A DNA stretch of 64,000 nucleotides from a virus (IMGVR_UViG_3300017963_000230:1-64000); one strand, 5' to 3'; positions 18,869-64,000 are shown, counted from the stretch's first letter. A program made the numbers and translations. Notes: a model not told the origin generated them from the sequence alone.

Positions 18869-18871
18869 TTC

Positions 18872-19656: not shown

Positions 19657-19681
19657 TCAGGGGGATTAAGGAGATACTAAA

Positions 19682-20430: not shown

Positions 20431-20434
20431 ACCT

Positions 20435-49400: not shown

Positions 49401-49542
49401 CCTTTTTGCGGAAAGCCTTGGCGGGTGCATAGTCTGTGACTTCTTGATTTACATCTTTGTAAATCGGATCACCCTGTTCATCGACTCCACTTTGCAGAAA
49501 ATAATCCTGAGGGTTTTGTTCTTCTGATTTTACAAGTCTCAT
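46453..49542 (-). CDS. Large fibre/adhesin-like protein with two LamG/ConA-like lectin-fold regions
   Basis: C-terminal YFLGFGDATDYIDLYISASSYFYAIWQSDG...WYWVELAWDD...FYVNG, plus an earlier FELYISSDDYFTCIYNP...HVILFSWD...IFYDG pattern. Visibly higher G+C than the glycan island. Confidence 0.6.
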   Translation of the reverse strand: MRLVKSEEQNPQDYFLQSGVDEQGDPIYKDVNQEVTDYAPAKAFRKKVFDGTADIVVLSNTIQIYWKGNLVAEAQLEGQVEISPNNWQGQLFSFADSNVQKITEIETDEGTVPVTPFFRCYVVKDIPALGITDAVFGMDVHWAFKNTKLSFYLDTPGFNARIRWQCRVKDSALRWVDESDPLFPVVHKGLWFSVSDYEGNVNHGSQGDPEPGWTQHWWTFEPDGKQIDVADARTPLERYEQGVGLVVDPYLSIEESGSTVTVYCDGFSILFDPTETGGLNCDNNSATTWNYYYPAQVVVSSGVYNLGYDPNSIIEIIESNANRVVLRFRGNFYNSTPTVLTNSDSIEIYLYIYSDRIVQHSKWITSGGNISIDSNGQNGFPMNYIGSGVLTNDTAIYENGGSESTGTGEHGSADYVGIDADELDHILINLSESSTGGSLSQYHSSTRQYRIGWDNCTIEPGTHEIVNVWIFDTEDREGSTKIYDSTDRLAMGDQYKDAILDQSPSKGDDVTDMILPARISSGTLHSDGAHHYEVDTNDAVKLTLDTTRIRPAFAIHDWPFQYGTVASPTDILLCHLKCDENAASPTLTDQTANNADGTWSNISDGSDRNTNTSGDSVQVFGRGRNLDTQDGAGHIEMTFGSGTVHDNAFFCRGSLMIKLLPQFDYDTVDGQGLFELYISSDDYFTCIYNPTPDNWNTGGSVGGSAIWQGSAPQTYDNYSLKRCHVILFSWDLLRHEWFIFYDGVCAASKINTGTAGSGDPVNFEIGSRINRTYPADIIIDDVKTFSECLLPFGAYFIGNGEGLLADINNPHADLTFFWDCQASGAGAAKGGANLGTNYTVTLNGSGVLTTADKIIGTKSFDTTAEGSHSASFSIDANNFDGSYGRIGMWVNFQTVTASKYFLGFGDATDYIDLYISASSYFYAIWQSDGVTRYLASTLTPTAGVWYWVELAWDDSDYIDFYVNGILLDHEDSGGSWSKTTGTMYLGADESGANSADCLIGAFYITKDRFTPQIWTAFGKPLHVPLVDLQ

Positions 49543-49591: not shown

Positions 49592-50020
49592 TTACCTCAA
49601 GTTCTTCGGCTTGCCCGGTGGAACGTGATGCACGATACCGAAAGGGTTTGGCGTATATTCCCCATTAGTATCCGACCAGTTAACCTCACTCTCTTCTAAT
49701 AAAGTTCCTTCTGAATCAAACCTAACAGCACTAACACCTACTAAATAGCGACCTTCGGTATTCAAAGTAATAACATATTGTAAATCAACAATAGGTGTAG
49801 TAGTGAGCAAAGAAGGATTCTCTTTGTTAGGATCGGTCTTAAAATTAGCCAGGTAGACATTGTACTTAATTACATCTCCAGCAGGTATTACTGTACCATC
49901 CTCCAAGGTAGTTACAGCATCCCAGGCAACAGTTGCCTGGTTGGTTTTTTGCCAATCTAATGCGTAAGCACTAAAAATAATTACCAATGACAGAATTACT
50001 ACATAAATAGATTTTTTCAT
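49592..50020 (-). CDS. Secreted FN3-like domain protein
   Basis: MKKSIYVVILSLVIIFSAYA signal peptide. ATVAWDAV...IKYNVYL...YLVGVSAV beta-sandwich pattern. Confidence 0.5.
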   Translation of the reverse strand: MKKSIYVVILSLVIIFSAYALDWQKTNQATVAWDAVTTLEDGTVIPAGDVIKYNVYLANFKTDPNKENPSLLTTTPIVDLQYVITLNTEGRYLVGVSAVRFDSEGTLLEESEVNWSDTNGEYTPNPFGIVHHVPPGKPKNLR

Positions 50021-50244
50021 TTTTTACCTCCCTTGTTAAATCTTGACTCAATCACAAAGTCAAGCAAATAGATTAATTTACGTTTCTGATAATCTTCCAA
50101 TTCCTCATCCTGTTGTATCTTCACCCTTATTTTATAGAATAACTTTCTGGTCAGGCAGAAGCGTCTGGGGGCATCCACTTCTTTACCCAATCCTCTATAC
50201 TGACCTTTTGACGCCTTTGAATATGATCTCTGTGGCGGCGACAT
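50017..50244 (-). CDS. Hypothetical protein
   Basis: 4-nt overlap with the downstream gene, but a 94-nt overlap with the 3' end of the GT-A gene. Confidence 0.35.
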   Translation of the reverse strand: MSPPQRSYSKASKGQYRGLGKEVDAPRRFCLTRKLFYKIRVKIQQDEELEDYQKRKLIYLLDFVIESRFNKGGKK

Positions 50245-51167
50245 TTCAGGTCTACATTCCTATAAATAGAGTGAAGAACTTCAGGTTTCCCCTTGAGACC
50301 CCCATTAATAGCTTTGAGTGCATAATCCCTTCCTCCATAAAGGTAACAAGCGATGAGCTTATTGCGTACATAGTCATCATAAAGGTAATGATAGCTTCTC
50401 CTTTCACCATGATGGAAACAAGTACCATTAGGATAGATCCATTTATTCATTCCCAAAACGGATAGGGTAAAATTAAAAAAGTTCTCACCTCCTCCATATA
50501 TACCAAGCTCAGGAGACCAACCTCCTAATGCTTCATATACTTTTCTTGATACGAGTACTCCACAACAACTCATGCAGGGAACCTCAAAAGGATCTCCTTT
50601 GTCTACACGACAGGGTGTGAATTTGTAGTCAAGTAACCCATGTTCAAACCACTCAACATTAAGTTTGTATATCAACCTACGAGATTCTAATATTTTATAA
50701 GTGAGTGGTAAGTGCATTGATCCGTTTATCTTTTCCTCATTCTGCTTATAGTACTGGAGCATACCATAAAGGCTGTCACGAGCAAGGATAACGTGTGAAT
50801 CCACAAAAAATAAATAATCACCAGTGCTGTGCTTAACACCCACCCTTTTGGCATTCCAATGGGACAGCCTTTCAGAATACTCTGCATGTTTCAACCATGG
50901 GTTCTGTTTCTGAGCTGTAGCTTTAATGGCTTCGGCTCCCTTATCCTCTTCCCAAGGTAGGTTCTGAGTCTTTCTTTGATTCACAAATTGATCACAATAA
51001 TTGTTTACTGCTACGATCTCGAAGTCTACCCTGTCACGCAGCTCTCCTGCGATGGATTGCAAAGTGAATATCAGCTGTGGATATTCATTTACATACGGTA
51101 TAATTACTGAAAGTTCTGCCATTTTATCGTATTCCTTTCTTCTCCTGCGAGATTGTCGTAAAGTCAT
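50151..51167 (-). CDS. GT-A glycosyltransferase with ppGalNAc-transferase-like motifs
   Basis: LSVIIPYVNE, YLFFVDSHV (DxH), GGWSPELGIYGGGENFFNFTLSVLG...CFHHGERR (compare WGGENLEISFRVWQCGG...VGHVFRK of animal GalNAc-Ts, recalled from memory). Confidence 0.6.
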   Translation of the reverse strand: MTLRQSRRRRKEYDKMAELSVIIPYVNEYPQLIFTLQSIAGELRDRVDFEIVAVNNYCDQFVNQRKTQNLPWEEDKGAEAIKATAQKQNPWLKHAEYSERLSHWNAKRVGVKHSTGDYLFFVDSHVILARDSLYGMLQYYKQNEEKINGSMHLPLTYKILESRRLIYKLNVEWFEHGLLDYKFTPCRVDKGDPFEVPCMSCCGVLVSRKVYEALGGWSPELGIYGGGENFFNFTLSVLGMNKWIYPNGTCFHHGERRSYHYLYDDYVRNKLIACYLYGGRDYALKAINGGLKGKPEVLHSIYRNVDLKCRRHRDHIQRRQKVSIEDWVKKWMPPDASA

Positions 51168-51194
51168 GTAATTACACGTTAAAATTGACGCTGA

Positions 51195-51233
51195 TATTTG
51201 ACGAATTCTGCACGAACTGTGCTTGCTTAATGC
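51195..51233 (-). promoter_or_regulatory. Conserved ~38-nt intergenic motif, copy D (minus orientation, upstream of a minus-strand gene)
   Basis: Reverse complement gcattaagcaagcacagttcgtgcagaattcgtcaaata, 28 nt before the SD-less ATG at 51167. Confidence 0.6.
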
Positions 51234-51244
51234 TTCACTATGCT

Positions 51245-52120
51245 TTATTTATTTCCACTAAACAATTTCCTTCTGGGTCTTGCTGGAGTACTTTCAACAT
51301 CTGTGCTTGATACACTTTTAGAAGTGGTAGAAGATTTGGTAGAGGGTTTTCTAAATACGATACCATACTGACCAAAAAAATACCTGCGCTTGTGTATCAT
51401 ATCCCAGGACCCCGTTCTATCTAATAAATCAAATCCTGTACTCTTTGCCAAGTCTTCCATATACCACATTGACATCTGTATGTTAATGCCACGAACTTTA
51501 GTTTTAGGTCCGCCTTCACGATATCCTGGTCCTTCTTTCTCCTTTTCGATGTCTTTCAGTACCTCAGACCAAGGCTGGTGAAGAGCTGACCTTAGCATTC
51601 TGGAAAAGAAAACTACTCCAACTCCTCCTGGTTTCATAACACGGTAAACCTCTTTCAAATAATTTCTGATATTTTCCACCGTTCCTAAGTGCATAAACGT
51701 AACCCAACTGTGGACAAAATCAATACTCTCTTCTGGAAGTGGAATTGTTTTACCATCTCCTACTACTAATTCTACCTCTTCGTCCTTAATTCCCCTCTTA
51801 TTGAGTTCTTCCATAACAAAGTCGGCTTCTTCATGAACATCTAAACCATATGCCTTGTCAAAATACAATGAGGCAGCCAAAACTTGTCCACCACTTCCAT
51901 AACCTATATCTAAAGAAGTCTTGGTATTAAGTTTCTTAAGATACTTTTTGGCACTTGGAAGCATAAGCCTGTTGAAAACATCCTCTGCCTTTTCAAAAGC
52001 CGCATCCGTAGTTTCATTTTCACCTTTAGGTCCATCAAACCAACTAAAGAACTTATCTCTTCCCTGTTCCCTTAATAATTTAATCTCATTACGGAAACCT
52101 TCTGGATTGCAATAATTCAT
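51245..52120 (-). CDS. Class I SAM-dependent methyltransferase with a Ser/Thr-rich tail
   Basis: SLDIGYGSGGQ, VHSWVTFMHL, MKPGGVGVVFF. C-terminal STKSSTTSKSVSSTD. Confidence 0.65.
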   Translation of the reverse strand: MNYCNPEGFRNEIKLLREQGRDKFFSWFDGPKGENETTDAAFEKAEDVFNRLMLPSAKKYLKKLNTKTSLDIGYGSGGQVLAASLYFDKAYGLDVHEEADFVMEELNKRGIKDEEVELVVGDGKTIPLPEESIDFVHSWVTFMHLGTVENIRNYLKEVYRVMKPGGVGVVFFSRMLRSALHQPWSEVLKDIEKEKEGPGYREGGPKTKVRGINIQMSMWYMEDLAKSTGFDLLDRTGSWDMIHKRRYFFGQYGIVFRKPSTKSSTTSKSVSSTDVESTPARPRRKLFSGNK

Positions 52121-52121
52121 T

Positions 52122-53048
52122 TCATACCTCCTTCTTTAAATAATTTATCAATTTAATTGCAGACCTATCATAGCTAAAAGATTTCTTGAACTTTTCTCTC
52201 CCATTCTTCCTAACCCGATCTATCAATAAAGGATTATCTAATAACCATTTAAGTTTAGAATGAAAATTATGGGAGTTCCAAGATATATAATCTTCCCCAT
52301 CTACTAAATCTTCATTAGGCAGAAAGTGGATATCCTCCAAGGAACAATGAGCATACAGCAAAGCACCAGCTTTTAAGCAATCTGCGTAAGATCCTGAATA
52401 CTGTCCAAAACCACAGCAGCCCACACTTATTAGAGTTCTTCTTAATTCTTGAATATAATTCTCTCTACCTTCCACCCTTTTATAACTAACATCAGGAAGA
52501 TCTTTATTAACTTTCAATATTTTACGAACCGACTCCCTAACATAATGAGGATAATATTCAACTCCTATTTGACCATGCTTGAAACTTATTGAAATGTCCC
52601 TATCGAATTCATCTCTATACACCTTAGCATCAGACAAACTTAAACTGGTATTCAATATTACATAATCAATTTTAGGGTAGTACTTACCTGTAAATGCTTT
52701 TATAACTGGAGGGTAAGGAGTTATATCATCAAATCTAGTGTATCCATCCTTGTTACCATCATCATGGGTGTCGTGTAGTATCTTAACCCCTTTAAACTTT
52801 AAGAATATGTTATCAAAATAGTCCACCGTTTCCTTATTAAACTTTTTAGGATTGTACTCATCAGGAAAAGTTTCATAAATAAGTACATCATAATCTTCCT
52901 CTAACATACTTTCCTTAAATCTTGAAAAGTAAACTATGGAGGAAGATATATCTGGAAATAAATTCATTTCCCTTACTACATTCTCAAGATAATATCCATT
53001 CGCTCCTTTGTGAAAAAGATAAAGTACCTTCATTCTTCCTTTTCCCAT
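52122..53048 (-). CDS. Putative glycosyltransferase (CgeB / Glyco_trans_1_2-like C-terminus)
   Basis: CLKAGALLYAH...LVDGEDYISW...LKWLLDNPLLIDRVRKNGREKF resembles the GT-B C-terminal pattern. Confidence 0.4.
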   Translation of the reverse strand: MGKGRMKVLYLFHKGANGYYLENVVREMNLFPDISSSIVYFSRFKESMLEEDYDVLIYETFPDEYNPKKFNKETVDYFDNIFLKFKGVKILHDTHDDGNKDGYTRFDDITPYPPVIKAFTGKYYPKIDYVILNTSLSLSDAKVYRDEFDRDISISFKHGQIGVEYYPHYVRESVRKILKVNKDLPDVSYKRVEGRENYIQELRRTLISVGCCGFGQYSGSYADCLKAGALLYAHCSLEDIHFLPNEDLVDGEDYISWNSHNFHSKLKWLLDNPLLIDRVRKNGREKFKKSFSYDRSAIKLINYLKKEV

Positions 53049-53758
53049 ATCATAAAGTGAGCTTTATTACCTTTCTTTTTCCATCCATTCTTAACAGCCC
53101 ACTCCCTCCCCATATCTCGTATATAATTAGGCTCTCCTGGATGACCATATACCCCATACTTCCAATGCATCACCTCGTTTACCAATGCTTCATTACCCCC
53201 ATGAAATTGCTTTTCAGGATTACGATCGGTGAGTAGATGTTGGCGACAGGCTTTAACGAAGGATCCCTTTATAAGGGAAGGATGACCACAGAAACCTACT
53301 GCTTGTTTAATTTCCTCTGGGCATTCATAATAAGTGCCATTCCAGGGAAACCAACGATCCCAGTTCTTCATACCATCCTTGCCACACTTAAACTGAGGTA
53401 GGCGCAGAAGTGCAAGATCTTGATATGATTCTAATATTCCCATCATATGTCGTAAGTCCACCCTTTGCAACAATTCCCAATCGTCTTCCAGTTGTAAGAT
53501 CCAATTATTTTCTACCTGATCCCAACACCACTTAAAAGCATCACTAAAATTAGGCTCTGCTGGACAGCGAGCAATAACGGGTTCTGCGAACCAATAGCAT
53601 AATTCTATCGACTTATAGCTGTCCTCATTTACTCCTACAGGATCCACATTAATAATAATTCTAAAGTCATGGTTCCATAAAAGGTTTTCTAAAAAAGAAT
53701 TAAGAGTCTTGAATAGTAATTCACGCCTTCTGCAAGCTGTGATTGTAACATCTATCAT
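53030..53758 (-). CDS. GT-A-like protein, paralogue of 56816-57538
   Basis: ITACRRRELLFKTLNSF and ILQLEDDWELL, versus ITYQRPDYLGRTLTSF and VMHLQDDWLST in the paralogue. Confidence 0.4.
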   Translation of the reverse strand: MIDVTITACRRRELLFKTLNSFLENLLWNHDFRIIINVDPVGVNEDSYKSIELCYWFAEPVIARCPAEPNFSDAFKWCWDQVENNWILQLEDDWELLQRVDLRHMMGILESYQDLALLRLPQFKCGKDGMKNWDRWFPWNGTYYECPEEIKQAVGFCGHPSLIKGSFVKACRQHLLTDRNPEKQFHGGNEALVNEVMHWKYGVYGHPGEPNYIRDMGREWAVKNGWKKKGNKAHFMIWEKEE

Positions 53759-53766
53759 GATACCTC

Positions 53767-54396
53767 CTATAGATATCTTTGAGCCATTATATCAAACCTA
53801 CTTAATGCCTCATTGTAAATACTTCTATCCTCTTGATTTATTTCATCAAGTATTCTCCTGGTACGTCCACTAAACCTAAACTTCTTCCTACCAGGAGTTC
53901 TGTTGGCATGCATCTTATGTATGATTTCAAATCCCAAAATCTTTTCTATTATTCTCATACTTTCTTCATGCCTCTCTGTAATACCTACAAAAGCAAATTG
54001 ATCTAAATCCCCGCCTGTCATTAGATGCATATAGTTAGGAAATTGACGGGCGAACCAAAATATATTCTTTGATTTAATTCCCTCAGCCCCGTGCTTCCAA
54101 ACAGAGTAATAGGAAATCAATCTGTCTACAGGATCCCTAAGGAAAGTAATCATAGGCCACCCTAAATGCTTATACTTATTGGCTGTAAAATGACCAATAA
54201 CGCCTACATGGTAGTTTTCGTCAAAACCACCAGGGTAACCCTTTTCAGACCTATCAGTAAATTTTATCATTCCCAAGTATCTGTCTTTCCTAAAATGACG
54301 ATCCCTAAATATCTTATCTTTAAACTTTTCCCTTACCGTAATATTAAAAGAAGTGCCTCCACATTTAGGTATATGAACAAAAACAAACTTCCTCAA
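53767..54396 (-). CDS. Sulfotransferase-family protein
   Basis: FVHIPKCGGTSF (5'-phosphosulfate-binding-type loop) and FLRDPVDRLISYY (3'-phosphate-binding-type motif). Confidence 0.6.
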   Translation of the reverse strand: MRKFVFVHIPKCGGTSFNITVREKFKDKIFRDRHFRKDRYLGMIKFTDRSEKGYPGGFDENYHVGVIGHFTANKYKHLGWPMITFLRDPVDRLISYYSVWKHGAEGIKSKNIFWFARQFPNYMHLMTGGDLDQFAFVGITERHEESMRIIEKILGFEIIHKMHANRTPGRKKFRFSGRTRRILDEINQEDRSIYNEALSRFDIMAQRYL

Positions 54397-54992
54397 AACG
54401 GCTTTATCCTTTCAAAATACATCATGTTATCGTAATAGGCTTTGATTCCTTTCTTGTCTTTCCAAGGTTTTAACAGATTCTTTACTCTATCCTGAATAGA
54501 TTGCCCGTTAATAAAACCTCTATTAACAAACTTGAATACCCAATAGGTGTAAGGCTGACAGTTGACATGACCGTGACCTCCTTGTCCAGGAGGAGCGGCT
54601 GAAATTAGAACTCTTTTGGAGAGATTGGTTAAATTCTCAACAAATTGATCTGCACACTCTTCATCTATATGCTCTGCTACCTCTAAACAAATTGCAAGAT
54701 CAAAACTTAGACCTAAGTTAAGTGGAAGTCTCAGGTCTTTGATGAAAACTTTATCTTTAGGAACCAAAAGGTAGGGAACTACATTATCCGTACCCTCTAT
54801 CCCATAGCACATTATCTTTCTTTTGTCAAACTCTTTTATTAGATCTCCAACAGCACACCCTGCATCTATCACAGATTTAGGATCTAATACTTTACAAATA
54901 GCATCACATACAGCCTTTGCTCTCCACTCTAAACTGCTTCTTCTTGCAAAATATCTTCCTTTATACATTGTTCTTAAATCAATCATTTTCAA
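54393..54992 (-). CDS. Class I SAM-dependent methyltransferase
   Basis: VIDAGCAVGDL, DLAICLEVAEHI. Confidence 0.6.
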   Translation of the reverse strand: MKMIDLRTMYKGRYFARRSSLEWRAKAVCDAICKVLDPKSVIDAGCAVGDLIKEFDKRKIMCYGIEGTDNVVPYLLVPKDKVFIKDLRLPLNLGLSFDLAICLEVAEHIDEECADQFVENLTNLSKRVLISAAPPGQGGHGHVNCQPYTYWVFKFVNRGFINGQSIQDRVKNLLKPWKDKKGIKAYYDNMMYFERIKPF

Positions 54993-56118
54993 TATATTCC
55001 TTTATTAAAGGTTGAATATCTGGTTTAGGATTCTTTCTAATTACACGGAACAGTCTTTCCATTTCAGGTAATATTACATCATAAAGACCATTACGCTTTT
55101 GAAAATCATCATAACACCTCTGCTTTATTCCCTTTTTACGGAAGGTAAGGATTGCATTCCTAAGTTCATGAGCTATGCTGCTTATATCATCAGGGTTTGA
55201 AGATACATGACAAAAAGGATTATCTTTCCAAATAGAAGGACAATGGCGGGCAGTCCCCGCCAAGAGTATAGGAGTTCCACAGGCCAGCGATTCTATTGGA
55301 CCCCTATCATTCTGCCCGCCTTGTCCCATAAAGACAGAAAGGTGGCTTTGGTTTAAAACCTCAGCCACCTTTGTGCGGTGGAGCATACCAGGACAGTGTA
55401 CTGACAGACGGGCACTATTTATAGTTGAACCTATCTGGTTTGTTTTGACCCCGTGAGTTACACGACCTGGCATTATACAGTGGAGGTCTTGATTAAAAAG
55501 CCTTTTATACTCCGCGATGACCTCAATGGTTTTCCACTGACCTTTCTTGTCGTGGACGTGCGATGCACCAACGCAGATATCATACCTCTTCTTAATATCA
55601 GGAAGAGGCCGGAAGTAATCCGGATTTATAGGCTTTTTGAAGTAGTAAAAAAATCTACCTCGGGAATCATAACGATGCTTCCCATAAAGGTCGTCAAAAA
55701 CAACGTCCCAGAACTTCCACCGTGCCCTACCTGTATTGGCTGCGTAAACCAGCAACCAACGCCTTTCTTTCTTCATACGGTTTAAAAAGTTAAACCAACT
55801 TCTAAATCCACCTCTTGCCCAAATTATATCATCTGATCTCAAGAACTGATGTGCATATCCTATCTCAGGAACTACATAACACTTAACATGATTAAAATAA
55901 GTGGTATAACCTGGACTGCGAGAGGATTCGATAAAAATAAGAAGGTCATCTATTATACCCTGATTAAGCATTTCGCGGAGCATATACAGGTACCCTTCGC
56001 TAGGCAATCCATTTTCACCTGTAGCATAAAAATTATTAGATTGAGCGTGAGGATCCCAAGGCACATTAGATCCTTCTTGTGCTGCTCCATCACTATTAAA
56101 TAAGAAAATCAACCTCAA
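54979..56118 (-). CDS. GT-B fold glycosyltransferase-like protein
   Basis: GQGGQNDRGPIESLACGTPILLAG is a typical GT1/GT4 C-terminal pattern. Confidence 0.5.
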   Translation of the reverse strand: MRLIFLFNSDGAAQEGSNVPWDPHAQSNNFYATGENGLPSEGYLYMLREMLNQGIIDDLLIFIESSRSPGYTTYFNHVKCYVVPEIGYAHQFLRSDDIIWARGGFRSWFNFLNRMKKERRWLLVYAANTGRARWKFWDVVFDDLYGKHRYDSRGRFFYYFKKPINPDYFRPLPDIKKRYDICVGASHVHDKKGQWKTIEVIAEYKRLFNQDLHCIMPGRVTHGVKTNQIGSTINSARLSVHCPGMLHRTKVAEVLNQSHLSVFMGQGGQNDRGPIESLACGTPILLAGTARHCPSIWKDNPFCHVSSNPDDISSIAHELRNAILTFRKKGIKQRCYDDFQKRNGLYDVILPEMERLFRVIRKNPKPDIQPLIKEYIEND

Positions 56119-56828
56119 GGTGCAAACCTCTTAACCGCTTCATCATATATTATTAGATCTTTTTTATTGTATTTTCCGATTATATCTCTTTCCTTTTTAC
56201 TTATCTCCGGGTAGTCTCTAAAATTATAAATAGGATAAGCATTTGGAATAGGCATACCACTCCACTTACCAAATCTCTGTAAGCTCTCATCGTAATACTC
56301 TGTTATGCCTATAAAGTCGAATTTATCTAAATCTGTTCCTCCAATAAACTTACTAATAGGATTACGAGTGCCTTCGTACCTAGCAAAATCTATTAGAGTC
56401 ATCTCCTCCTTTATTATCTTTATGTGTATTTCTGGAGACCTGGCAGTAGTATTATGAATTTTAAGAGAATAGAACTGACTTGCAACCATATCTATAGGAT
56501 TCCTTACCCATGTGACCATAGGCAATCCTAAATAATCATACTTAGTATGATGAAAATGCCCATGTATTATGTCAAATAGAGTAGCATTAGGAGGAGGAGA
56601 GGCTTTTATTATATCAGGAATATACCTCTTACTTGTTTCATCATGAAGCACATTTAAAATACCATACCAATAAAACAGAAGGTTGCGAAAAGTAGTCCCT
56701 CCTGTTCTTGGTATGTGAATAGAAATAAACTTATGAATGATGGAGGATCTATCTTCCATCCTAGGATACCATTTCTTTAACTGTATAGAGAAAGGGGTAG
56801 GTTTCTTCTTTCTACTCATCTTACCCAC
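56115..56828 (-). CDS. Sulfotransferase-family protein (second copy)
   Basis: SIHIPRTGGTTF and WVRNPIDMVASQFY. Confidence 0.6.
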   Translation of the reverse strand: MGKMSRKKKPTPFSIQLKKWYPRMEDRSSIIHKFISIHIPRTGGTTFRNLLFYWYGILNVLHDETSKRYIPDIIKASPPPNATLFDIIHGHFHHTKYDYLGLPMVTWVRNPIDMVASQFYSLKIHNTTARSPEIHIKIIKEEMTLIDFARYEGTRNPISKFIGGTDLDKFDFIGITEYYDESLQRFGKWSGMPIPNAYPIYNFRDYPEISKKERDIIGKYNKKDLIIYDEAVKRFAP

Positions 56829-57538
56829 CTATCCTTTCCCCTAATTTCTGTTGTAGCCCTCTCTTCTCCTATGTGCATAAAACAGTTTCCTCTCACCTGA
56901 CCAGCAAGTAAACCTAATTTATGATATTTCTCCATCGCATCGTGCTCTTCAGTTACAGGTAGCATACGCTTTAAAACGGAGGTTCTAATGATAGTAGGAT
57001 TAAAGGTAAAATGAGCATTACCAATAACAATACGACAGTACTTATTGAACTTGGTATCCCATTTCTTCCATTTGATAGTCTTTTTAGAGATTCTATTTAC
57101 AATACTCACCTTGCTCCACGTAGCCGACCTAAGCCGTGCATACCCAACATCCTCCCTTTCTTCAAACAGTTGAAAGATACCTTTGTTATTTTTATATCCA
57201 GAGAAGTCATCCTCATAAAGGTAGTGAGTAATAGGCTCCGTACTTAACCAATCATCTTGTAAGTGCATTACAAGATCCGTACCTTCTTCTAAAAGCTCTT
57301 GATTTAAAAGGGAATAACCCCAAGCACAACCATGATTACTTTTAAGGGAAATAATCCTATCTATTCTCTCTTTAAACCTATCTAGAACTCTCATCGTAGC
57401 GTCATCCATGCCCTGCACAAGCACCACTACTGGTCTAAATTCTTCTAAGCAATCATAATTAACATTAAAGAAGGAAGTGAGTGTTCTGCCTAAGTAGTCA
57501 GGACGTTGGTACGTTATAATTCCCAAGGGCACTCTCAT
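56816..57538 (-). CDS. GT-A-like protein, paralogue of 53030-53758
   Basis: See 53030-53758. Shares the N-terminal beta-strand/Arg motif and the xQxxDDW motif. Confidence 0.4.
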   Translation of the reverse strand: MRVPLGIITYQRPDYLGRTLTSFFNVNYDCLEEFRPVVVLVQGMDDATMRVLDRFKERIDRIISLKSNHGCAWGYSLLNQELLEEGTDLVMHLQDDWLSTEPITHYLYEDDFSGYKNNKGIFQLFEEREDVGYARLRSATWSKVSIVNRISKKTIKWKKWDTKFNKYCRIVIGNAHFTFNPTIIRTSVLKRMLPVTEEHDAMEKYHKLGLLAGQVRGNCFMHIGEERATTEIRGKDRWVR

Positions 57539-57539
57539 A

Positions 57540-58124
57540 CTATTCCTTTATGAAAAAGCGAGTGGTACAGCTTTTAAGTTTAAGATGAGTATTAGCTGGA
57601 TGTCCTCTGAACATATCAAGCACCTCTTTAACGCAAGGATTCTCAGGATGAACTTCATATCCCCAATCATGAACACCCATCACATCTCCTTTATTTAACA
57701 GCTTACCATAATAACAGATTTCTCTGTCCTTGTTACCATTATCACAATAAAGGAGTTTCTTTTCAGGTCTTTCAAGTAAGGCTGACAGCATGATATTCTT
57801 CCTGTCTATAACATCTGACCTTATAAAGGATACCCTCTTACCAAAACCATGGTTTATAAGGAACTCCAAATCCTCCTTAGTGACTTTACCTTTAGCACGT
57901 ACTAAACTCGTCCTAGCATCCATATTGTCAAAGGTAAAAAGAGTAGCCTTAGGATCAGCCTCATGCAATAACAAGGTAAGTCCATAATAAAAAGTACCCA
58001 ACTCCACTATTACCTTAAACTTACTATCCCTTACCACCTTCTGTATTATAGGGAAGCTGTCGAGTTCATGACTGATAAGAGCCTTTAGTCCTTTAACTCT
58101 TTTACTCTCGTACCAATTTCTCAT
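57540..58124 (-). CDS. Putative SAM-dependent O-methyltransferase (TylF / Methyltransf_24-like)
   Basis: VIVELGTFYYGLTLLL and LLYCDNGNK. Confidence 0.4.
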   Translation of the reverse strand: MRNWYESKRVKGLKALISHELDSFPIIQKVVRDSKFKVIVELGTFYYGLTLLLHEADPKATLFTFDNMDARTSLVRAKGKVTKEDLEFLINHGFGKRVSFIRSDVIDRKNIMLSALLERPEKKLLYCDNGNKDREICYYGKLLNKGDVMGVHDWGYEVHPENPCVKEVLDMFRGHPANTHLKLKSCTTRFFIKE

Positions 58125-59383
58125 CTATATTTTAACTCCTGCATTGTGGGTGCGTAGTACTTACGGTAAAGATTATCATAATTATAGGTTCTGCGGCAGT
58201 GTGTCTTGATTTTCAATGCCTCATTCTCTTTAAATCTGCCTATGATGATAAAAGCTACATCACGAAAGAATTTATCTGGATCTTCAATCTTTAAATCATG
58301 ACTAAAGCTACCAAAGTCAAAATAGAGGCAATTGGCCTTAGTAATCTCTATTTGCTGATGCAAAGACTTATTTAGCACCATATAGGTTCCAGACAAAGCC
58401 GCCTCTGGTACTACAAGACCAAAAGACTCTTCCCTAGTGGGGAAGATAAACAGGTTGCTACAGAGAAACAGCTCACGGATCATATACTGGGGAATGCCTA
58501 CATCAAACTTGGGGCTCTCGAAGTCGCTGGTAAAGGCGAAGTCTACTTGATCAATCAATCCTTTCATTATCGCATGTTGTCTATATTTATCAGTATCTTC
58601 TTTCTGTTGTTTACCAGTAGCCCACTGATTAGCTACGAGAAGGAACACTTCTCTTCCATGAGCTTTAAGCTCAGCAAAGATACTCATTACATAACGCAAC
58701 CTTTTGGCTGCCAGTCGATCTACTGAAGCAGGTAGTAATTGAACGAATTCTGCACTCAGTATGCCTGGATATTTATCAATCAGCCTCTTGGTGTCGTCAC
58801 TAAATTCAAACCATGTACGGATATCTTTAATGTGAGGTATACAACGAACATCATGAATCTGCCCCTTATAGTGCTCTGCTACCCTAATACGGTCAGTTTC
58901 GTTTGGATAGATGAGTTTATGATTTGGACCGTATTCCCCTATATTCCACCAATCTCGTGGACCACCTGAAGGGATACTGTGTATCCAGTGCATCCACACT
59001 ACCTTTGGTAGATTGGAAGTAGCTTCCTTTATAGCTTCACCATAAGGCATATTCCAACCAATGAAAACAAAGTCATGAGTATAAACTACATCAAATTCCT
59101 CTTCACCGAGTATCTTGACGAACCTTTTGGCTGTCTCAATTTTGATAATCTTATGCTCGTCTGACAGGTCCCTCACAGAATGATAATCTTTGAGGTGAGT
59201 AAAAGGTATTTCCTTCCTTAATTGTACGTTACCTGGAAAGTCCTCTCCATGATACCTTTCATTTACAAAAAGGTGAACTTCATGGTCATAACGAGCGAGC
59301 ATCTCTACCTGATCCTTAACAATACCCGTAAGACTGTAACCTGGTTGAAACTCTTGAAATGTTGTCATGATTGCAATTTTCAT
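58121..59383 (-). CDS. GT4-like GT-B glycosyltransferase
   Basis: MKIAIMTTF...EVHLFV N-terminus and LFIFPTREESFGLVVPEAALSG (EX7E). Confidence 0.7.
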   Translation of the reverse strand: MKIAIMTTFQEFQPGYSLTGIVKDQVEMLARYDHEVHLFVNERYHGEDFPGNVQLRKEIPFTHLKDYHSVRDLSDEHKIIKIETAKRFVKILGEEEFDVVYTHDFVFIGWNMPYGEAIKEATSNLPKVVWMHWIHSIPSGGPRDWWNIGEYGPNHKLIYPNETDRIRVAEHYKGQIHDVRCIPHIKDIRTWFEFSDDTKRLIDKYPGILSAEFVQLLPASVDRLAAKRLRYVMSIFAELKAHGREVFLLVANQWATGKQQKEDTDKYRQHAIMKGLIDQVDFAFTSDFESPKFDVGIPQYMIRELFLCSNLFIFPTREESFGLVVPEAALSGTYMVLNKSLHQQIEITKANCLYFDFGSFSHDLKIEDPDKFFRDVAFIIIGRFKENEALKIKTHCRRTYNYDNLYRKYYAPTMQELKYR

Positions 59384-59444: not shown

Positions 59445-62400
59445 TTAACTCTGTGTAAACTCAAAATTGTCGAACCAACAATTATATCCTGATTTTAAAT
59501 AGTTATGATAATGTAAATTAACCTTAAAAGAGCTTCCAATTGCTGAAAGAATCGTACTAGATACCGACTGCTGTGATCCATACTGGGTATCGTCTACATA
59601 TAACTCAATCCATTCTTCATCAAAATTAAGGACAATTTCCACATTATGTCCATTTGTTTCATCGTATGTAAATGATTCATTAATAAGAGTGTTTCCACTA
59701 CCACCACTAACTTCTGTAACAGTTATTAATCCACTAGTATCTGACCTCATTGCCAATCTTATTTTATCTCCAGCAGAACCCATATCAAGTTCACATCTGT
59801 TATAATCCCAAGAACCAGTATAGTAAGTTGGACTCGCCTCGACTATTTCAAAACCTTGTATATAATTAATTAGACCATCATCGTATGGATTGTTTGTAGG
59901 TTTAAACCAAAATTTGAAAGACCATTGTCCCGAAGCATCCAAAGCATCTTTCAAAAGTGCATTACATCCATAATTTCCACCTGCTGTATTAAGATCTAAT
60001 TCTAATTGTCCACTTGTATATTGAGCATGATTATTACTATTAGAGTTATCGATCCATTTATCAGTAAAAGTACCGGAACAATCATCTTCAAAGTCAGGAA
60101 CAGGAGGGGGCTCGGTTGTAGTGGTAGTGCTGAAGGTGCTGGTTGTAGATGCTGTACTAGAACTGGTACTTGTGGTAGATGAGGTGCTGGTTGTAGATGC
60201 TGTAGACGATGTGGTACTTAAGGTGCTGGTTGTAGATGCTGTACTAGAACTGGTACTTGTGGTAGAGTAAGTGCTTGTGGTAGAGTAAGTGCTAGTACTG
60301 GTGCTTGTGCTCGTGCTTGTGCTGGTTGTTGAATAGGTACTAGTGCTTGTACTAGTTGTTGAATAGGTACTAGTGGTCGAGTATGTGCTGGTGCTTGTGC
60401 TAGTGGTTGAGTATGTGCTGGTGCTTGTGCTGGTGCTTGAATATGTGCTGGTACTTGTGCTAGTAGATGTACTGGTACTGGTGGTTGAATATGTACTGGT
60501 GCTGGTACTGGTGCTGGTACTTGTGCTTGTGGTTGAATAGGTGCTGGTACTTGTACTGGTACTTGTAGTAGAGTATGTACTGGTGCTGGTACTAGTTGTG
60601 CTGAAGGTGCTGGTGCTTGTGCTGGTTGTAGAGTATGTACTGGTGCTGGTGCTGGTGCTGGTTGTGCTGAAGGTGCTGGTACTTGTGCTTGTGGTTGAAT
60701 AGGTGCTGGTGCTGGTACTGGTAGTTGAGTATGTACTAGTTGTGCTAAAGGTCGAGGTGCTGGTACTGGTTGTGCTATATGTACTGGTAGATGTAGTTGT
60801 ATAGGTAGTTGTAGTGGTTGTAAGAGTACCACAAGTTAATAATTCTACCTCATGCAAATAAACATTAGTACTATCAAAAGCATCAGTAAATCTAAAACGC
60901 CAATACTTATGATGTAATGTATTATCTAATATATCATAAGTATTCCATCCTCCCTTAGGATTCTCTCCAGAATAATGAGTAGTTTCCTCCCCTGCAAAAT
61001 TACCTGTAGCCGAAGATAAGATTGACAATCCTGTAGGCCTATAAGAAGCGTTGTTAAAAAGTAATCTAACCCTATGCACAATCCAAGCTGATGTCATTTC
61101 AATCTGTATCCAATTTGGAAACAGATCTACTGTAGCCTGCCAATAAGTACTATCATTATCGTCAAAAGCATTATCTGGGTCACTACCAGCCTGCGTTGAA
61201 AAAGCCGAAGCAGTTCCTCCTGATGTATGATCACTACTCCAATTATCACAAGGTACAGTTTGAGTGGTGGTAGTAGCTGAAGATGTAGTAGTGGAGTATG
61301 TGCTGGTGCTGGTGCTGGTGCTGGTGCTAGAAGTAGAAGAAGATGTGGTTGTTATAAAAGTACTTGTGGTCGAGTAGGTTGATGTGCTGGTACTGGTGGT
61401 AGAGTATGTACTAGTCGTAGTGAATGTACTGGTGCTGGTACTGGTGGTAGAATAAGTGCTGGTTGTACTATAGGTAGAAGTGCTGGTGCTTGATGTAGAT
61501 GTACTGGTTGTGCTGAAGGTGCTGGTACTTGTACTGGTAAAGGAAGTAGTGCTCGAATGAGTACTAGAAGTGGTGCTCCCAGTAGTTCCTGTAGTGCTAG
61601 TAGTATAGGTGGTCTCTGTACTACTCGTGCTCATTGTAGTGCTGGTACTACTACTGGTTGTTGAAGTGGTACTAGAGAAAGTAGTAGATCCAGTAGTAGT
61701 GGTGAAACTACTTGTGGTGGATAATGTGCTGGTTGTGCTATAAGTAGATGTAGTGGTAGAGGTTGTTGTTTGACTTGCGGTGGTTCTTGTATCCCAAAGC
61801 AGTATATCAGTTACATTGAATGGTGTGTCGTCTCCAGCACTTAAGGTAAAGGTAAAGTAATCTATATCTCCTCTATTCACCCAATTAGGGTAAATCACAG
61901 TACCTGAAGCATAATTACCTTGCCAGCATTGACCATTAGTGGTCATTATTTCAAGATTTGGACTGCCTCCATGATCATGGATGATTTTAATCTTTTCAGG
62001 TCTGAAGTTAATCATCCAAGTACCAATAGCTCTTAGACGACCACCATTTGAATCTGCATTTACATTGAAATCCCAATCACCATTAACAGAATCCCATTCA
62101 ACTTCGATGTCAGTTTCAGGATCTATATGATCAGGTTCCCAACGAGTATAATTAAAATACTGTAGCCACTGACTACGCCAATCTACATAGAAGGTAGGCT
62201 TCTCCGAACCACTATTATAGTCATAACTGCTAAACATACGATGGGATCCGGTGTCAGAACTATTGTCGTCTATCACCAATATAATAGCATTGCCGCTCGC
62301 CCAACCACTCCTGTCTATCACTGTTTGAAGTATAGAAGCTAGGTTAGGAGTGCTATAGCCTGTACCGTCGCCCCAAGCAAGTAGATCGCTTTGGTTTATA

Positions 62401-62597
62401 CCAGAAGTTAAACTGAAGGCATCTAACTCTGTCTTATTAGCTGGTGCACTAGGATTATCAGCATTTACAAAATAATAGGTAACATTGGCATTTGAAGCAT
62501 TGGTAGCTCCATATGCTATAAATCGAGCGAAAGCCAAATTGATACTGCTTCCCTGAGGAATATTCACACCTGTAAATCTAATAAATGCTTTCGCCAT
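59445..62597 (-). CDS. Second mucin-like protein: N-domain, S/T tract, discoidin (F5/8 type C)-like domain, S/T tract, LamG-like C-domain
   Basis: Start moved to the TAATG-coupled ATG 62597 (track start 62615). NAFDDNDSTYWQAT...NWIQIEM...VHRVRL discoidin pattern. C-terminal QLELDL...WSFKFWFKP jelly-roll pattern. Confidence 0.75.
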   Translation of the reverse strand: MAKAFIRFTGVNIPQGSSINLAFARFIAYGATNASNANVTYYFVNADNPSAPANKTELDAFSLTSGINQSDLLAWGDGTGYSTPNLASILQTVIDRSGWASGNAIILVIDDNSSDTGSHRMFSSYDYNSGSEKPTFYVDWRSQWLQYFNYTRWEPDHIDPETDIEVEWDSVNGDWDFNVNADSNGGRLRAIGTWMINFRPEKIKIIHDHGGSPNLEIMTTNGQCWQGNYASGTVIYPNWVNRGDIDYFTFTLSAGDDTPFNVTDILLWDTRTTASQTTTSTTTSTYSTTSTLSTTSSFTTTTGSTTFSSTTSTTSSSTSTTMSTSSTETTYTTSTTGTTGSTTSSTHSSTTSFTSTSTSTFSTTSTSTSSTSTSTYSTTSTYSTTSTSTSTFTTTSTYSTTSTSTSTYSTTSTFITTTSSSTSSTSTSTSTSTYSTTTSSATTTTQTVPCDNWSSDHTSGGTASAFSTQAGSDPDNAFDDNDSTYWQATVDLFPNWIQIEMTSAWIVHRVRLLFNNASYRPTGLSILSSATGNFAGEETTHYSGENPKGGWNTYDILDNTLHHKYWRFRFTDAFDSTNVYLHEVELLTCGTLTTTTTTYTTTSTSTYSTTSTSTSTFSTTSTYSTTSTSTSTYSTTSTSTSTFSTTSTSTSTSTYSTTSTSTSTFSTTSTSTSTYSTTSTSTSTSTYSTTSTSTSTSTSTSTYSTTSTSTSTSTSTSTYSSTSTSTSTYSTTSTSTSTYSTTSTYSTTSTSTSTYSTTSTSTSTSTSTSTYSTTSTYSTTSTSSSTASTTSTLSTTSSTASTTSTSSTTSTSSSTASTTSTFSTTTTTEPPPVPDFEDDCSGTFTDKWIDNSNSNNHAQYTSGQLELDLNTAGGNYGCNALLKDALDASGQWSFKFWFKPTNNPYDDGLINYIQGFEIVEASPTYYTGSWDYNRCELDMGSAGDKIRLAMRSDTSGLITVTEVSGGSGNTLINESFTYDETNGHNVEIVLNFDEEWIELYVDDTQYGSQQSVSSTILSAIGSSFKVNLHYHNYLKSGYNCWFDNFEFTQS
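60111..60822. repeat. Ser/Thr-coding repeat tract B
   Basis: TSTSTYSTTSTSTSTFSTT-type repeats, the same dialect as in 41612-45595. Confidence 0.85.
61262..61785. repeat. Ser/Thr-coding tract A (less regular)
   Basis: TTSTTTSTYSTTSTLSTTSSFTTTTGSTTFSS.... Confidence 0.8.
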
Positions 62598-63991: not shown

Positions 63992-64000
63992 ATCCTCACT

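Follow-up and report, generated by a model that had tools for sequence, protein, structure and literature searches.

The window analysed here, a stretch of 64,000 nucleotides (IMGVR_UViG_3300017963_000230:1-64000), comes from a tailed phage with a genome of about 87 kb that is known from metagenomic contigs alone. On its minus strand lies an island of 11 genes (50151-59383), running in the same direction as the late module's tail-tip and fibre genes and encoding at least three clear glycosyltransferases with two to three weak candidates, two to three methyltransferases, and two sulfotransferases. Its genes overlap or are tightly spaced on one strand, and translational coupling links the island to the tail-tip and fibre genes. 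The two ORFs to which the original prediction assigned sulfotransferase motifs are both present on the minus strand with those motifs: ST1 (53767-54396; 209 aa, TTG start), a canonical Sulfotransfer_2-type sulfotransferase with HIPKCGGTSF and RDPVDRLIS, and ST2 (56115-56828), a divergent Sulfotransfer_2-type sulfotransferase with HIPRTGGTTF, RNPIDMVAS, and a basic stretch of about 30 aa extending its N-terminus. ST2 is 237 aa long from a GTG start and 234 aa long from the ATG at 56819, three codons in, which gene callers pick.

The remaining island genes, all on the minus strand, differ widely in how well they can be assigned. The first and best-conserved gene (58121-59383) encodes a GT4-type (GT-B) glycosyltransferase of 420 aa (Pfam Glyco_transf_4, 29.1 bits, and Glycos_transf_1), 57-83% identical over four lineages and a candidate initiating transferase. 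A search of deposited phages gave no sequence similar to it, and searches of all PDB sequences by phmmer and with a four-sequence profile returned neither GtfA nor any other significant glycosyltransferase match. Next come a 194-aa protein with no assigned family (57540-58124) and a weak GT-A/GT2-like candidate glycosyltransferase of 240 aa (56816-57538; Pfam Glycos_transf_2 E = 0.043, under the cut-off), whose gene overlaps the start of ST2 by 13 nt. The 194-aa protein matches nothing in Pfam, NCBIfam, or PHROG; it has a class-I methyltransferase-like GxG segment, recognized by eye only, a below-significance similarity to a Methyltransf_24 protein of the relative L008, and syntenic counterparts in L001-L004. 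The sulfotransferases had been described as interleaved with glycosyltransferases, and the interval between them indeed holds a 379-aa GT-B/Glycos_transf_1-like glycosyltransferase (54979-56118; Pfam Glycos_transf_1 E = 0.003, under the cut-off; PHROG 2170 E = 0.005), whose orthologue in L008 is hit by PF00534 and PF13692, together with a 199-aa SAM-dependent methyltransferase (54393-54992; Pfam Methyltransf_23 E = 1.5e-5) whose gene overlaps ST1 by 4 nt. Beyond ST1 lie a 242-aa protein with an "EDDW" motif (53030-53758), which has no family match and resembles the 240-aa protein only weakly, around DDW (E = 0.077), a 308-aa weak GT-B C-terminal-like candidate (52122-53048; Pfam Glyco_trans_1_2 E = 0.08), a SAM-dependent methyltransferase of 291 aa (51245-52120; Pfam Methyltransf_11 E = 2.1e-16), and, as the last island enzyme, a GT2 family glycosyltransferase of 338 aa (50151-51167; Pfam Glycos_transf_2 E = 5.4e-10, 39.9 bits, over the cut-off) that reaches the GtrB-like PHROG 22739 at just E = 0.008. 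We found no membrane segment in the island enzymes (19-residue hydropathy maximum ≤1.29), which are predicted to be soluble, and no flippase, polymerase, phosphoglycosyl-transferase, or NDP-sugar gene in Pfam, NCBIfam, and PHROG scans. Likewise, scans of the window ORFs and the flanks L020 and L023, with about 11 kb of the genome outside the scan, gave no PAPS-supply gene (SAT/APS kinase), and sulfotransferase activity would therefore depend on a PAPS-making host.

Extending the sequence past the window bears out the proposed structural-gene neighbourhood, since tape-measure and tail genes then precede the island. The order is a tape-measure protein (PF10145, PHROG 3547), proteins of 244, 871, and 625 aa, a Ser/Thr-rich protein, and the island; the contig L020 shows the whole 625-aa gene with the three genes upstream of it, and the C-terminal 464 aa of this tail-module protein lie within the window (62597-64000, minus strand; Fn3_assoc E = 8e-11, CHB_HEX_C_1 E = 1.7e-9). 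Ser/Thr-rich and lectin-domain proteins also follow the island, and portal, terminase-like, and wall-hydrolase genes are found further along the same strand. The replication module, encoded on the opposite strand, contains a 7-deazaguanine DNA-modification cassette.

The likeness to mucins proved stronger than the original prediction supposed, as mucin-like Ser/Thr-repeat proteins flank the island. On one side is a multidomain tail-module protein of 1056 aa (59445-62615, minus strand; F5_F8_type_C E = 2.4e-9, Laminin_G_3 E = 3e-4) composed of an N-terminal domain in common with the 625-aa protein, a Ser/Thr tract, an F5/8 type C (galactose-binding-like) domain, a second Ser/Thr tract, and a ConA-like domain; 442 of its residues fall in Ser/Thr-rich tracts, and orthologues are present in L004 (963 aa) and L022. 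On the other side, the translation of 41187-46142 (minus strand) gives a protein of 1651 aa with a Ser/Thr content of 74%, in which small globular N- and C-terminal domains enclose a (STSTSTYSTT)n-type repeat tract of about 1,313 residues. The tract is made up of 50% T, 39% S, and 6.7% Y and is encoded by degenerate DNA repeats (65-88% matches). Two further minus-strand genes lie nearer the island, one for a fibre-/receptor-binding-like protein of 1029 aa (46453-49542) with a C-terminal ConA-like lectin/glucanase domain (Pfam Laminin_G_3 E = 1.6e-9) and one for a 142-aa protein (49592-50020) that has a signal or anchor segment near its N-terminus (residues 4-22, where hydropathy peaks at 2.10) and whose L022 counterpart occupies the same position (123 aa, weak fn3 match). 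Tract lengths vary among assemblies (781 vs. 1651 aa; 996, 1050, and 1056 aa), so exact sizes are uncertain. The Ser/Thr-rich proteins have no PHROG structural match, and their assignment to the tail follows from gene position.

Family, fold and active sites of the two sulfotransferases

Profile searches agree with structure prediction and fold search in placing both ORFs among the sulfotransferases. ST1 passes the gathering threshold of Pfam Sulfotransfer_2 PF03567 (28.9 bits, E = 1.6e-6; threshold 22 bits) and matches PHROG 3347 (E = 5.9e-7). ST2 by itself stays under that threshold (15.5 bits, E = 0.019), but the profile built from its family (A2) aligns full-length with heparan sulfate 6-O- and 2-O-sulfotransferases, reaching HS6ST3 at E = 1.5e-17 and HS2ST at E = 6e-10. 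AF2 models (pLDDT 92.4 and pTM 0.89 for ST1; pLDDT 88.5 for ST2) predict an alpha/beta fold with a central parallel beta-sheet, as in solved sulfotransferases. In Foldseek searches of the PDB, sulfotransferases account for 46/50 top matches of ST1 (best HS2ST 4ndz, TM 0.66-0.67) and for 50/50 of ST2 (HS6ST, TM 0.52-0.54), and the matches of both models are almost all PAP-bound sulfotransferases. Both are minimal versions of the enzyme, with a core of about 200 aa.

The PAPS-binding residues on which the original prediction depended are kept across the 26 family members aligned; neither of the two outcomes named as refuting that prediction, a missing sulfotransferase fold or unconserved PAPS-binding residues, was seen. 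The 5'-phosphosulfate-binding (PSB) loop is a strand-loop-helix that has a conserved Gly and a catalytic Lys, replaced by Arg in Mt Stf0, and the 3'-phosphate-binding (3'-PB) strand-turn-helix has the PF03567 consensus PxxRxxS (PMC11625862). Key residues of ST1 are K11 in the PSB loop HIPKCGGT, G68-H69 with the catalytic base, R87, and P89-xx-R92-xx-S95 in the 3'-PB element; the PSB-loop His and second Gly (H8 and G14 in ST1 numbering), G68-H69, R87, and P89 are invariant, S95 is nearly so, and R92, conserved in at least 90%, makes R87-D-P89-V-D-R92-L-I-S95 fit PxxRxxS. The corresponding residues of ST2 are R41 (HIPRTGGT), G90-H91, R109, and P111-xx-M114-xx-S117. Arg replaces the PSB Lys in 20/138 motif-bearing relatives, and the same substitution occurs in Mt Stf0, which is active (PMC11625862). 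The 3'-PB element of ST2 (R109-N-P111-I-D-M114-V-A-S117) retains the first Arg, the Pro, and the Ser but has Met in place of the motif Arg, so that PxxRxxS is lost; its orthologues P0028-32, P0036, and P0038 have I, L, or Q at this position, and the loss is a conserved deviation under purifying selection. The invariant Gly-His of both proteins aligns to the "HGH" of HS2ST in a profile alignment, and this catalytic base His is common to HS2ST, HS6ST, and SULTs. The active site of ST1 is thus canonical, whereas that of ST2 departs from the canonical site. Purifying selection is strong on both (dN/dS 0.15 for ST1 against its L005 orthologue, 0.10 for ST2 against L025). We consider ST1 very probably an active sulfotransferase and ST2 probably one; both would be functional Sulfotransfer_2 (HS2ST/HS6ST-like) enzymes using a PAPS-type donor.

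The description of the two ORFs as paralogues holds as to homology, as ST1 and ST2 share 32% identity over their full length (BLASTP, E = 4e-19; phmmer 59 bits), a likeness far above chance. However, they are distant members of one family: when ranked by score against ST2, more than 150 unrelated 50%-identity clusters are nearer to it than ST1 is. ST1 and ST2 represent two old subfamilies and no recent duplication, which implies two distinct sulfation positions or sugars.

Candidate acceptors and alternative readings

Gene context points to the mucin-like Ser/Thr-repeat proteins as the likeliest acceptors, with the 1651-aa protein proposed as the main glycan acceptor and the 1056-aa protein as another. 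The layout with Ser/Thr-rich proteins is kept in three divergent phage lineages, recurring in L004-L006 (ST2 56% identical) and in L022 (ST2 40%), and in L008 both sulfotransferases lie within a glycosyltransferase/methyltransferase island. Because the three lineages are related, this synteny may in part reflect common descent. Sulfated glycans are a reasonable inference from this context, and we infer a carbohydrate acceptor, the Ser/Thr-rich proteins as its carriers, and a biological role, the link to these proteins being one of guilt by association.

Under the proposed mechanism, late in infection and in the host cytoplasm, the conserved GT4 would start O-glycosylation of the Ser/Thr tracts of the flanking tail proteins from host nucleotide sugars, the remaining island glycosyltransferases would lengthen the glycan, and the methyltransferases (with SAM) and ST1 and ST2 (with host PAPS) would cap it. 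The tail fibres would thereby carry a brush of mucin-like, polyanionic glycoprotein, which may serve to shield, to prevent aggregation, or to promote adhesion to mucus or polysaccharide matrices. On balance we lean toward this whole chain, that is, host-PAPS-dependent sulfation of O-glycans built on tail Ser/Thr-repeat proteins. If it is true, the phage coats its tail fibres with sulfated sugars. To our knowledge, sulfated sugars on phage tail fibres have never been demonstrated, and we know of no other case of two sulfotransferases inside a tail-module glycosylation island.

One alternative, which we regard as unlikely, is that the 11 genes form an auxiliary ("moron") cassette remodelling host surface polysaccharide (LPS, capsule, EPS, or teichoic acid), so that the sulfotransferases act on host glycans and the Ser/Thr-rich proteins are flexible fibre linkers. 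The possible gain would be a block to superinfection or progeny that are not trapped on debris. Phage glycosyltransferases are classically linked to serotype conversion (Markine-Goriaynoff 2004, as cited in PMC12619734), virome studies count sulfotransferases among viral AMGs (PMC12285232, PMC10829341), and sets of GT2, GT4, and methyltransferase genes are typical of polysaccharide loci. Yet the island sits in the late tail module with Ser/Thr-rich proteins on both sides in three lineages, its enzymes lack membrane segments, Pfam, NCBIfam, and PHROG scans gave no GtrA/GtrB-type, Wzx/Wzy, ABC-transporter, or priming phosphoglycosyltransferase gene, and 11 genes would be a big investment for a lytic-type late operon.

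It is considerably less probable that the target of the island is phage DNA (through glycan hypermodification), a lipid, or a small molecule, or that one or both sulfotransferases are inactive PAP/PAPS-binding scaffolds. Virus glycosyltransferases can glycan-hypermodify DNA (Pyle 2024, as cited in PMC12619734), and the non-canonical active site of ST2 would suit a scaffold. Against these readings, the catalytic His and the PSB and 3'-PB residues are conserved under the strong selection on both sulfotransferases, the island lies in the tail module and not with the DNA-modification cassette, and we saw no hydroxymethylase. Nor do we know of any sulfated DNA. That the enzymes sulfate side chains of the repeat proteins (the Tyr of STSTSTYSTT, or Ser/Thr) and not sugars is very improbable: the window tracts do have regularly spaced Tyr (5-6.7% of residues) and a Sulfotransfer_2 (PF03567) match does not reveal substrate or acceptor (PMC11625862), but in relatives that keep the sulfotransferases the tract Tyr is not conserved (0.9% in L004 and 0-0.5% in the long tracts of L022, with Phe/Leu or Ala/Val instead), the best sequence and structure matches are the carbohydrate sulfotransferases HS2ST and HS6ST and not TPST-type enzymes, and the two genes are interleaved with five to six glycosyltransferases.

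Comparison with known systems

ST1 and ST2 share with HS2ST (3f5f/4ndz) and HS6ST3 (5t03) the fold and the order of PSB loop H-x-x-K/R-x-G-G-T, Gly-His, and R-x-P-x-x-R-x-x-S helix, at 16-17% identity and TM up to 0.67. The HS2ST and HS6ST core is about 290 aa long, with large substrate-binding insertions, and these enzymes have a Golgi anchor, while the phage enzymes (209-237 aa) lack both the insertions and the anchor and would be cytoplasmic and soluble. ST2 further differs in its PSB Arg and missing 3'-PB Arg, and the acceptor is certainly not heparan sulfate.

Sulfotransferases had been thought rare in phages, and tblastn with ST1 and ST2 against 50,697 phage records indeed gave no match. 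However, proteins of the same fold (about 190-260 aa) are annotated in several phages, including cyanophages P-SSM7 and ACG-2014f, Roseobacter SIO1 (gp5.1), Ralstonia phiRSL1, and uncultured Caudovirales (PHROG 3347), as well as in many giant viruses; the annotated phage proteins are 12-20% identical to ST1 and ST2 and escape tblastn. Distant relatives also occur in giant-virus MAGs (L013, L017) and among BFVD matches.

Seroconversion and O-antigen cassettes (Gtr, Wzx/Wzy) need a membrane flippase, glycosyltransferase, or polymerase, whereas the island has none. Serine-rich-repeat (SRRP) adhesins of Gram-positive bacteria are glycosylated in the cytoplasm by GtfA/GtfB and further glycosyltransferases (PMC6973325, PMC5207161, PMC5578698) and likewise combine very long repeat proteins with neighbouring soluble glycosyltransferases, GT4-type enzymes (first-acting in SRRP), and extra decorating enzymes (O-acetylation in SRRP). 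In contrast, the phage GT4 has no detectable GtfA homology, an accessory Sec system is lacking, the repeats are Thr-rich and not Ser-rich, decoration would be by methyl and sulfate and not acetyl groups, and the products are viral tail proteins and not cell-wall-anchored adhesins. The island may thus be called SRRP-like by analogy at most.

Mycobacteriophages Che8, Corndog, and Myrna offer a phage precedent, as their glycosyltransferases O-glycosylate virion proteins and the glycans shield the virion (Freeman 2023, as cited in PMC12363180, PMC10877033, and PMC12619734). There too, phage-encoded glycosyltransferases are set beside or within structural genes and modify the phage's own proteins in the cytoplasm, as proposed here. 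The acceptors described in these citing papers are C-termini of capsid and tail-tube subunits, whereas the candidates here are giant Ser/Thr-repeat tail-tip or fibre proteins, and the same citing papers name no sulfotransferase.

A further parallel is offered by the fibril-glycosylation clusters of Megavirinae (Moumouvirus australiensis, Cotonvirus), with a predicted sulfotransferase (Ma461) and SAT/APS kinase (Ma457), and with methyltransferases in the related Tupanvirus cluster (PMC10117803). In both systems a virus-encoded cluster of glycosyltransferases and sulfotransferases is proposed to decorate outer virion proteins, and in both sulfation is predicted. Megavirinae infect eukaryotes and have genes for nucleotide-sugar pathways and for making PAPS, neither of which was found here; the tailed phage, at about 87 kb, instead has two sulfotransferases and mucin-like Ser/Thr-repeat proteins adjoining the cluster. 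Given that annotations of sulfotransferase-fold genes exist for some phages and giant viruses, and that one such gene has been described in a giant-virus fibril cluster, the phage island is a variant on a known theme and not wholly new.

Two sulfotransferases of one family

Both sulfotransferase genes named in the original prediction are present on the minus strand, and both carry the motifs claimed for them: ST1 (53767–54396, 209 aa) reads HIPKCGGTSF and RDPVDRLIS, and ST2 (56115–56828, 237 aa; 234 aa when begun at the ATG that gene callers choose) reads HIPRTGGTTF and RNPIDMVAS. Between them lie genes for a methyltransferase (54393–54992, minus strand) and a GT-B-like glycosyltransferase (54979–56118, minus strand). 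ST1 scores 28.9 bits on Pfam Sulfotransfer_2 (PF03567), above the curated 22-bit cut-off, and matches PHROG 3347, "galactose-3-O-sulfotransferase" (E = 5.9e-7); ST2 scores below that cut-off (15.5 bits, E = 0.019), and NCBIfam has no model for either protein. PDB searches with single sequences were weak or empty, whereas a profile built from an alignment of 26 relatives matched zebrafish HS6ST3 (5t03, E = 1.5e-17) and HS2ST (4ndz and 3f5f, E = 6e-10) end to end. AlphaFold2 models of ST1 (pLDDT 92.4, pTM 0.89) and ST2 (pLDDT 88.5, pTM 0.84) matched almost exclusively PAP- or PAPS-bound sulfotransferases when searched against the PDB with Foldseek. The best matches of ST1 are HS2ST structures (TM 0.66–0.67), and 50/50 top matches of ST2 are sulfotransferases, with HS6ST at TM 0.52–0.54. 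Profile searches, structure prediction and fold comparison all agree, and the predicted sulfotransferase fold therefore stands; the enzymes themselves are an ordinary family assignment.

ST1 and ST2 share 32% identity in a full-length alignment (E = 4e-19), and each has separate orthologues in related phages. We reject a recent (tandem) duplication: their mutual phmmer score is 59 bits, and over 150 unrelated 50%-identity clusters lie nearer to ST2 than ST1 does. At E ≤ 1e-3 the family comprises 2,011 clusters, of which 629 remain at E ≤ 1e-10. Some relatives of ST2 on metagenomic contigs (among P0037, P0039, P0042, P0044 and P0093) are tandem sulfotransferase-domain proteins of 472–527 aa with 2–3 matched stretches, and the same set includes 747-aa fusions and one 865-aa protein with six matched stretches.

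Marks of the sulfotransferase family include a 5′-phosphosulfate-binding (PSB) loop with a catalytic lysine "or arginine" (as in the active Mt Stf0), a serine on the 3′-phosphate-binding (PB) helix (PxxRxxS in the PF03567 consensus), and a histidine or glutamate as catalytic base (2024 review, PMC11625862). PAPS dependence, part of the original prediction, is consistent with our alignments, in which the His and Gly of the PSB loop and the Arg, Pro and Ser of the PB motif are invariant or nearly invariant. In ST1 numbering, H8, G14, G68-H69, R87 and P89 are invariant and R92 and S95 nearly so, and the G-H pair aligns to the "HGH" of HS2ST. The ST1 active site is fully canonical (K11, H69, R87, P89-xx-R92-xx-S95). 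The ST2 orthogroup shows a paired deviation, in which Arg (R41) replaces the PSB Lys and Met the Arg of PxxRxxS; orthologues P0027–32, P0036 and P0038 share it, with Met, Ile, Leu or Gln in place of the motif Arg. ST2 retains H38, G44, G90-H91, R109, P111 and S117. Of 138 motif-bearing relatives, 20 carry a PSB Arg, and the PB Arg is retained in 117/125 PSB-Lys versus 12/21 PSB-Arg sequences, counts that are not phylogenetically independent. The paired change could represent charge relocation or compensation, or altered donor handling. Purifying selection on both genes is strong, with dN/dS of 0.10 for ST2 (against an 81%-identical orthologue, dS 0.96) and 0.15 for ST1 (against a 72%-identical orthologue, where dS of 1.4 is near saturation).

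An enzyme island in the tail module

ST1 and ST2 belong to an island of 11 minus-strand enzyme genes (50151–59383) that overlap or lie ≤8 nt apart within sub-blocks. Read from 59383 to 50151, it encodes a GT4 glycosyltransferase (420 aa), a 194-aa protein with no assigned function, a weak GT-A-like protein (240 aa), ST2, a GT-B-like protein (379 aa), a methyltransferase (199 aa), ST1, a 242-aa protein with no assigned function, a weak GT-B-like protein (308 aa), another methyltransferase (291 aa) and a GT2 glycosyltransferase (338 aa). Hydrophobic segments are found in 0/11 of these enzymes. The window ORFs scanned include no genes for nucleotide-sugar synthesis, flippase, polymerase or priming transferase, and no PAPS-supply gene occurs in these ORFs or in the flanking contigs L020 and L023, a coverage of all but about 11 kb of the genome. 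GT4 gave no informative PDB match, whether searched alone or through a profile from four lineages, and the idea that it is a GtfA-like initiating enzyme thus found no support. Comparison of the 240-aa and 242-aa proteins, one beside each sulfotransferase, as possible paralogues was not significant (E = 0.077), nor was that of the 194-aa protein with a Methyltransf_24 protein of the related locus L008. A promoter and terminator scan of the island found no enrichment over shuffles and thus no sign that it is transcribed separately.

From 63991 to 40834, the minus strand forms a single tightly packed block. On an identical contig reaching past the window, the upstream order is a 1453-aa tape-measure protein (PF10145, PHROG 3547), a 244-aa gene, an 871-aa gene, a 625-aa CHB_HEX_C_1/Fn3_assoc protein, a Ser/Thr-rich protein and then the island; beyond the window start, the same strand carries terminase-like, portal-like (a faint match) and peptidoglycan-hydrolase genes. 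With tape-measure, tail and packaging genes on the island strand, the structural-gene neighbourhood originally proposed is therefore real, with the island placed where the late module encodes the tail tip and fibres. L023 encodes NlpC/P60 and Peptidase_C92 domain proteins (18–443 and 4004–4567, minus strand) amid head and packaging genes; these may be virion-associated wall hydrolases. A metagenome scan with a 464-aa fragment returned nothing.

The window is a phage genome, and its plus strand encodes helicases, a DnaB-like helicase, a family-A DNA polymerase (≤26% identity to any deposited phage), a clamp-loader-like ATPase, RecA-like and SSB proteins and an exonuclease; no tRNAs were found in the window. 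It also carries a 7-deazaguanine-type DNA-modification cassette (17200–24202), comprising QueD/PTPS (17200–17631, E = 1e-32), a QueE-like radical-SAM protein (17570–18226), FolE GTP cyclohydrolase I (18872–19459, E = 3e-42), a second radical-SAM protein (20372–21715) with a 347-aa neighbour of no assigned function, and a DpdA-like queuine tRNA-ribosyltransferase (23015–24202, PHROG 887, E = 8e-37), all on the plus strand, as is a DUF932 protein in the early region (9325–10191). The divergent junction of the structural (minus) and early (plus) modules at 1–2300 (low GC of 0.335, almost no ORFs) probably has a regulatory role or contains an origin or terminus. At the convergent junction, an 85-aa ORF with an N-terminal TM segment and coiled coil (39946–40203, plus strand), a 75-aa lipobox ORF (LLILSSC; 40244–40471, minus strand) and a 118-aa ORF with one TM segment (40834–41190, minus strand) are possible spanin- or holin-like lysis genes, and spanin-like ORFs near 40 kb are a weak hint of a diderm host.

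Ser/Thr-rich proteins as candidate acceptors

Proteins with long Ser/Thr tracts flank the island. The 1651-aa protein (41187–46142, minus strand; 74% Ser+Thr) has small globular ends joined by about 1,313 residues of (STSTSTYSTT)n-like repeat (T 50%, S 39%, Y 6.7%), and the 1056-aa protein (59445–62615, minus strand; 45% Ser+Thr) has an N-terminal domain, a tract, an F5/8 type C domain (E = 2.4e-9), another tract and a ConA-like domain, the last also found in a 1029-aa protein. Repeat DNA is degenerate (65–88% matches), a pattern that suggests selection acting on composition more than slippage in recent time. Tract proteins vary in length between assemblies of the same phage (781 versus 1651 aa; 996, 1050 and 1056 aa), so their exact sizes are uncertain, and the differences reflect either a mucin-like VNTR polymorphism or the collapse of repeats in short-read assembly. 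The 1050-aa protein gave no match in an exact look-up. A 142-aa protein (49592–50020, minus strand) separates the island from the 1029-aa lectin-domain protein; it has a signal sequence that looks cleavable, or an anchor (MKKSIYVVILSLVIIFSAYA), and a counterpart in the related contig L022 with a weak fn3 match; a secreted or membrane-anchored protein is odd within a tail module.

This arrangement recurs in related phages. In one (JGI samples 3300041079, 3300041084 and 3300041086), ST2 is 56% identical and the order 625-aa protein, 963-aa Ser/Thr-rich protein, GT4, ST2, glycosyltransferase, methyltransferase, ST1 is kept. The more distant L022 (62.9 kb) has four Ser/Thr-rich proteins and only one sulfotransferase, 40% identical to ST2, in the order Tal-like, CHB_HEX, Ser/Thr-rich, GT4, sulfotransferase, methyltransferase, GT2, then more Ser/Thr-rich proteins. 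At a fourth locus, L008, both sulfotransferases are adjacent in an island of glycosyltransferase, methyltransferase and radical-SAM genes, where the contig ends. The radical-SAM enzyme and a GT17-family match beside them (2832–4067, plus strand) indicate that lineages differ in what their islands contain. Of the island genes, GT4 is the best conserved (57–83% identity).

On balance, we lean toward a mechanism in which the island enzymes would O-glycosylate the Ser/Thr tracts in the host cytoplasm, after which the glycans would be capped with methyl groups from host SAM and sulfate from host PAPS. We favour it because of the tail-module position, the soluble enzymes and the lack of export or lipid-carrier machinery, and because of the recurrent Ser/Thr-rich flanking proteins and three precedents (mycobacteriophages, SRRP adhesins and Megavirinae). 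The main rival, that the island remodels host surface polysaccharide, draws on the presence of sulfotransferases among virome AMGs, and we judge it improbable. Direct Tyr sulfation of the repeat proteins is disfavoured, and we reject it because Tyr is not conserved in the tracts of relatives: periodic Tyr is lineage-specific (5–6.7% here, 0.9% in the related locus L004, 0–0.5% in the long L022 tracts), whereas the sulfotransferases are conserved. A DNA or small-molecule target, or inactive sulfotransferases, is unlikely in view of the island's location and of purifying selection.

Cytoplasmic glycosylation and capping may be extended, more tentatively, to a virus-encoded "mucin", in which tail-tip or fibre proteins with hundreds to more than a thousand Ser/Thr repeat residues would be densely O-glycosylated by the island; the glycans would be O-methylated, and ST1 and ST2 would sulfate them at two positions. 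Such a product would be the first sulfated glycoconjugate of a phage virion and a convergent copy of animal sulfomucins, used as a shield, or to stick to or pass through matrices of polysaccharide and mucus. A new active-site solution would also be found in the ST2 clade, in which the PSB Lys becomes Arg with simultaneous loss of the PB-helix Arg.

Relation to known systems

The original prediction called sulfotransferases rare in phages, which holds only in part. Searches of phage records with ST1, ST2 and GT4 (tblastn) and of 50,697 phage records with the island's nucleotide sequence returned nothing, results that bear only on deposited close relatives. Sulfotransferase-fold genes are nonetheless already annotated in phages: BFVD lists such proteins from uncultured Caudovirales, cyanophages P-SSM7 and ACG-2014f, SIO1 (gp5.1), phiRSL1 and many giant viruses, at 12–20% identity, and IMG/VR gave eight distant loci (2/8 in giant-virus MAGs), all too distant for BLAST. 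Sulfotransferase-fold genes are thus not new in viruses, and we know of none of the annotated ones that has been characterised.

The first demonstration that phage virions are glycosylated is recent and comes from mycobacteriophages, in which the glycans change recognition by antibodies. For giant viruses, sulfated glycans have been predicted; viral glycan sulfation has, to our knowledge, never been shown. If correct, our reading would extend virion glycosylation in chemistry, to polyanionic sulfated glycans, and in architecture, to tail-fibre brushes. This would be relevant to how phages adhere to mucus, EPS, or the sulfated polysaccharides of algae or cyanobacteria, to their evasion of immune and defence systems, and to engineering them. 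The sulfotransferases are compact (about 200 aa) and soluble, and their family spans over 2,000 sequence clusters; given defined acceptors, they could serve as minimal carbohydrate-sulfating enzymes.

Precedents are found in mycobacteriophage virion glycosylation (Freeman 2023, as cited in PMC12363180, PMC10877033 and PMC12619734), in SRRP adhesins (PMC6973325, PMC5207161), and in Megavirinae fibril clusters, where a predicted sulfotransferase accompanies SAT/APS kinase, a prediction its authors describe as unvalidated (PMC10117803). We rate the present system as belonging with virus-encoded virion glycosylation; what is unusual is the combination of two divergent sulfotransferases, a complete decorating island, a tail-module position and mucin-like carriers, conserved across lineages.
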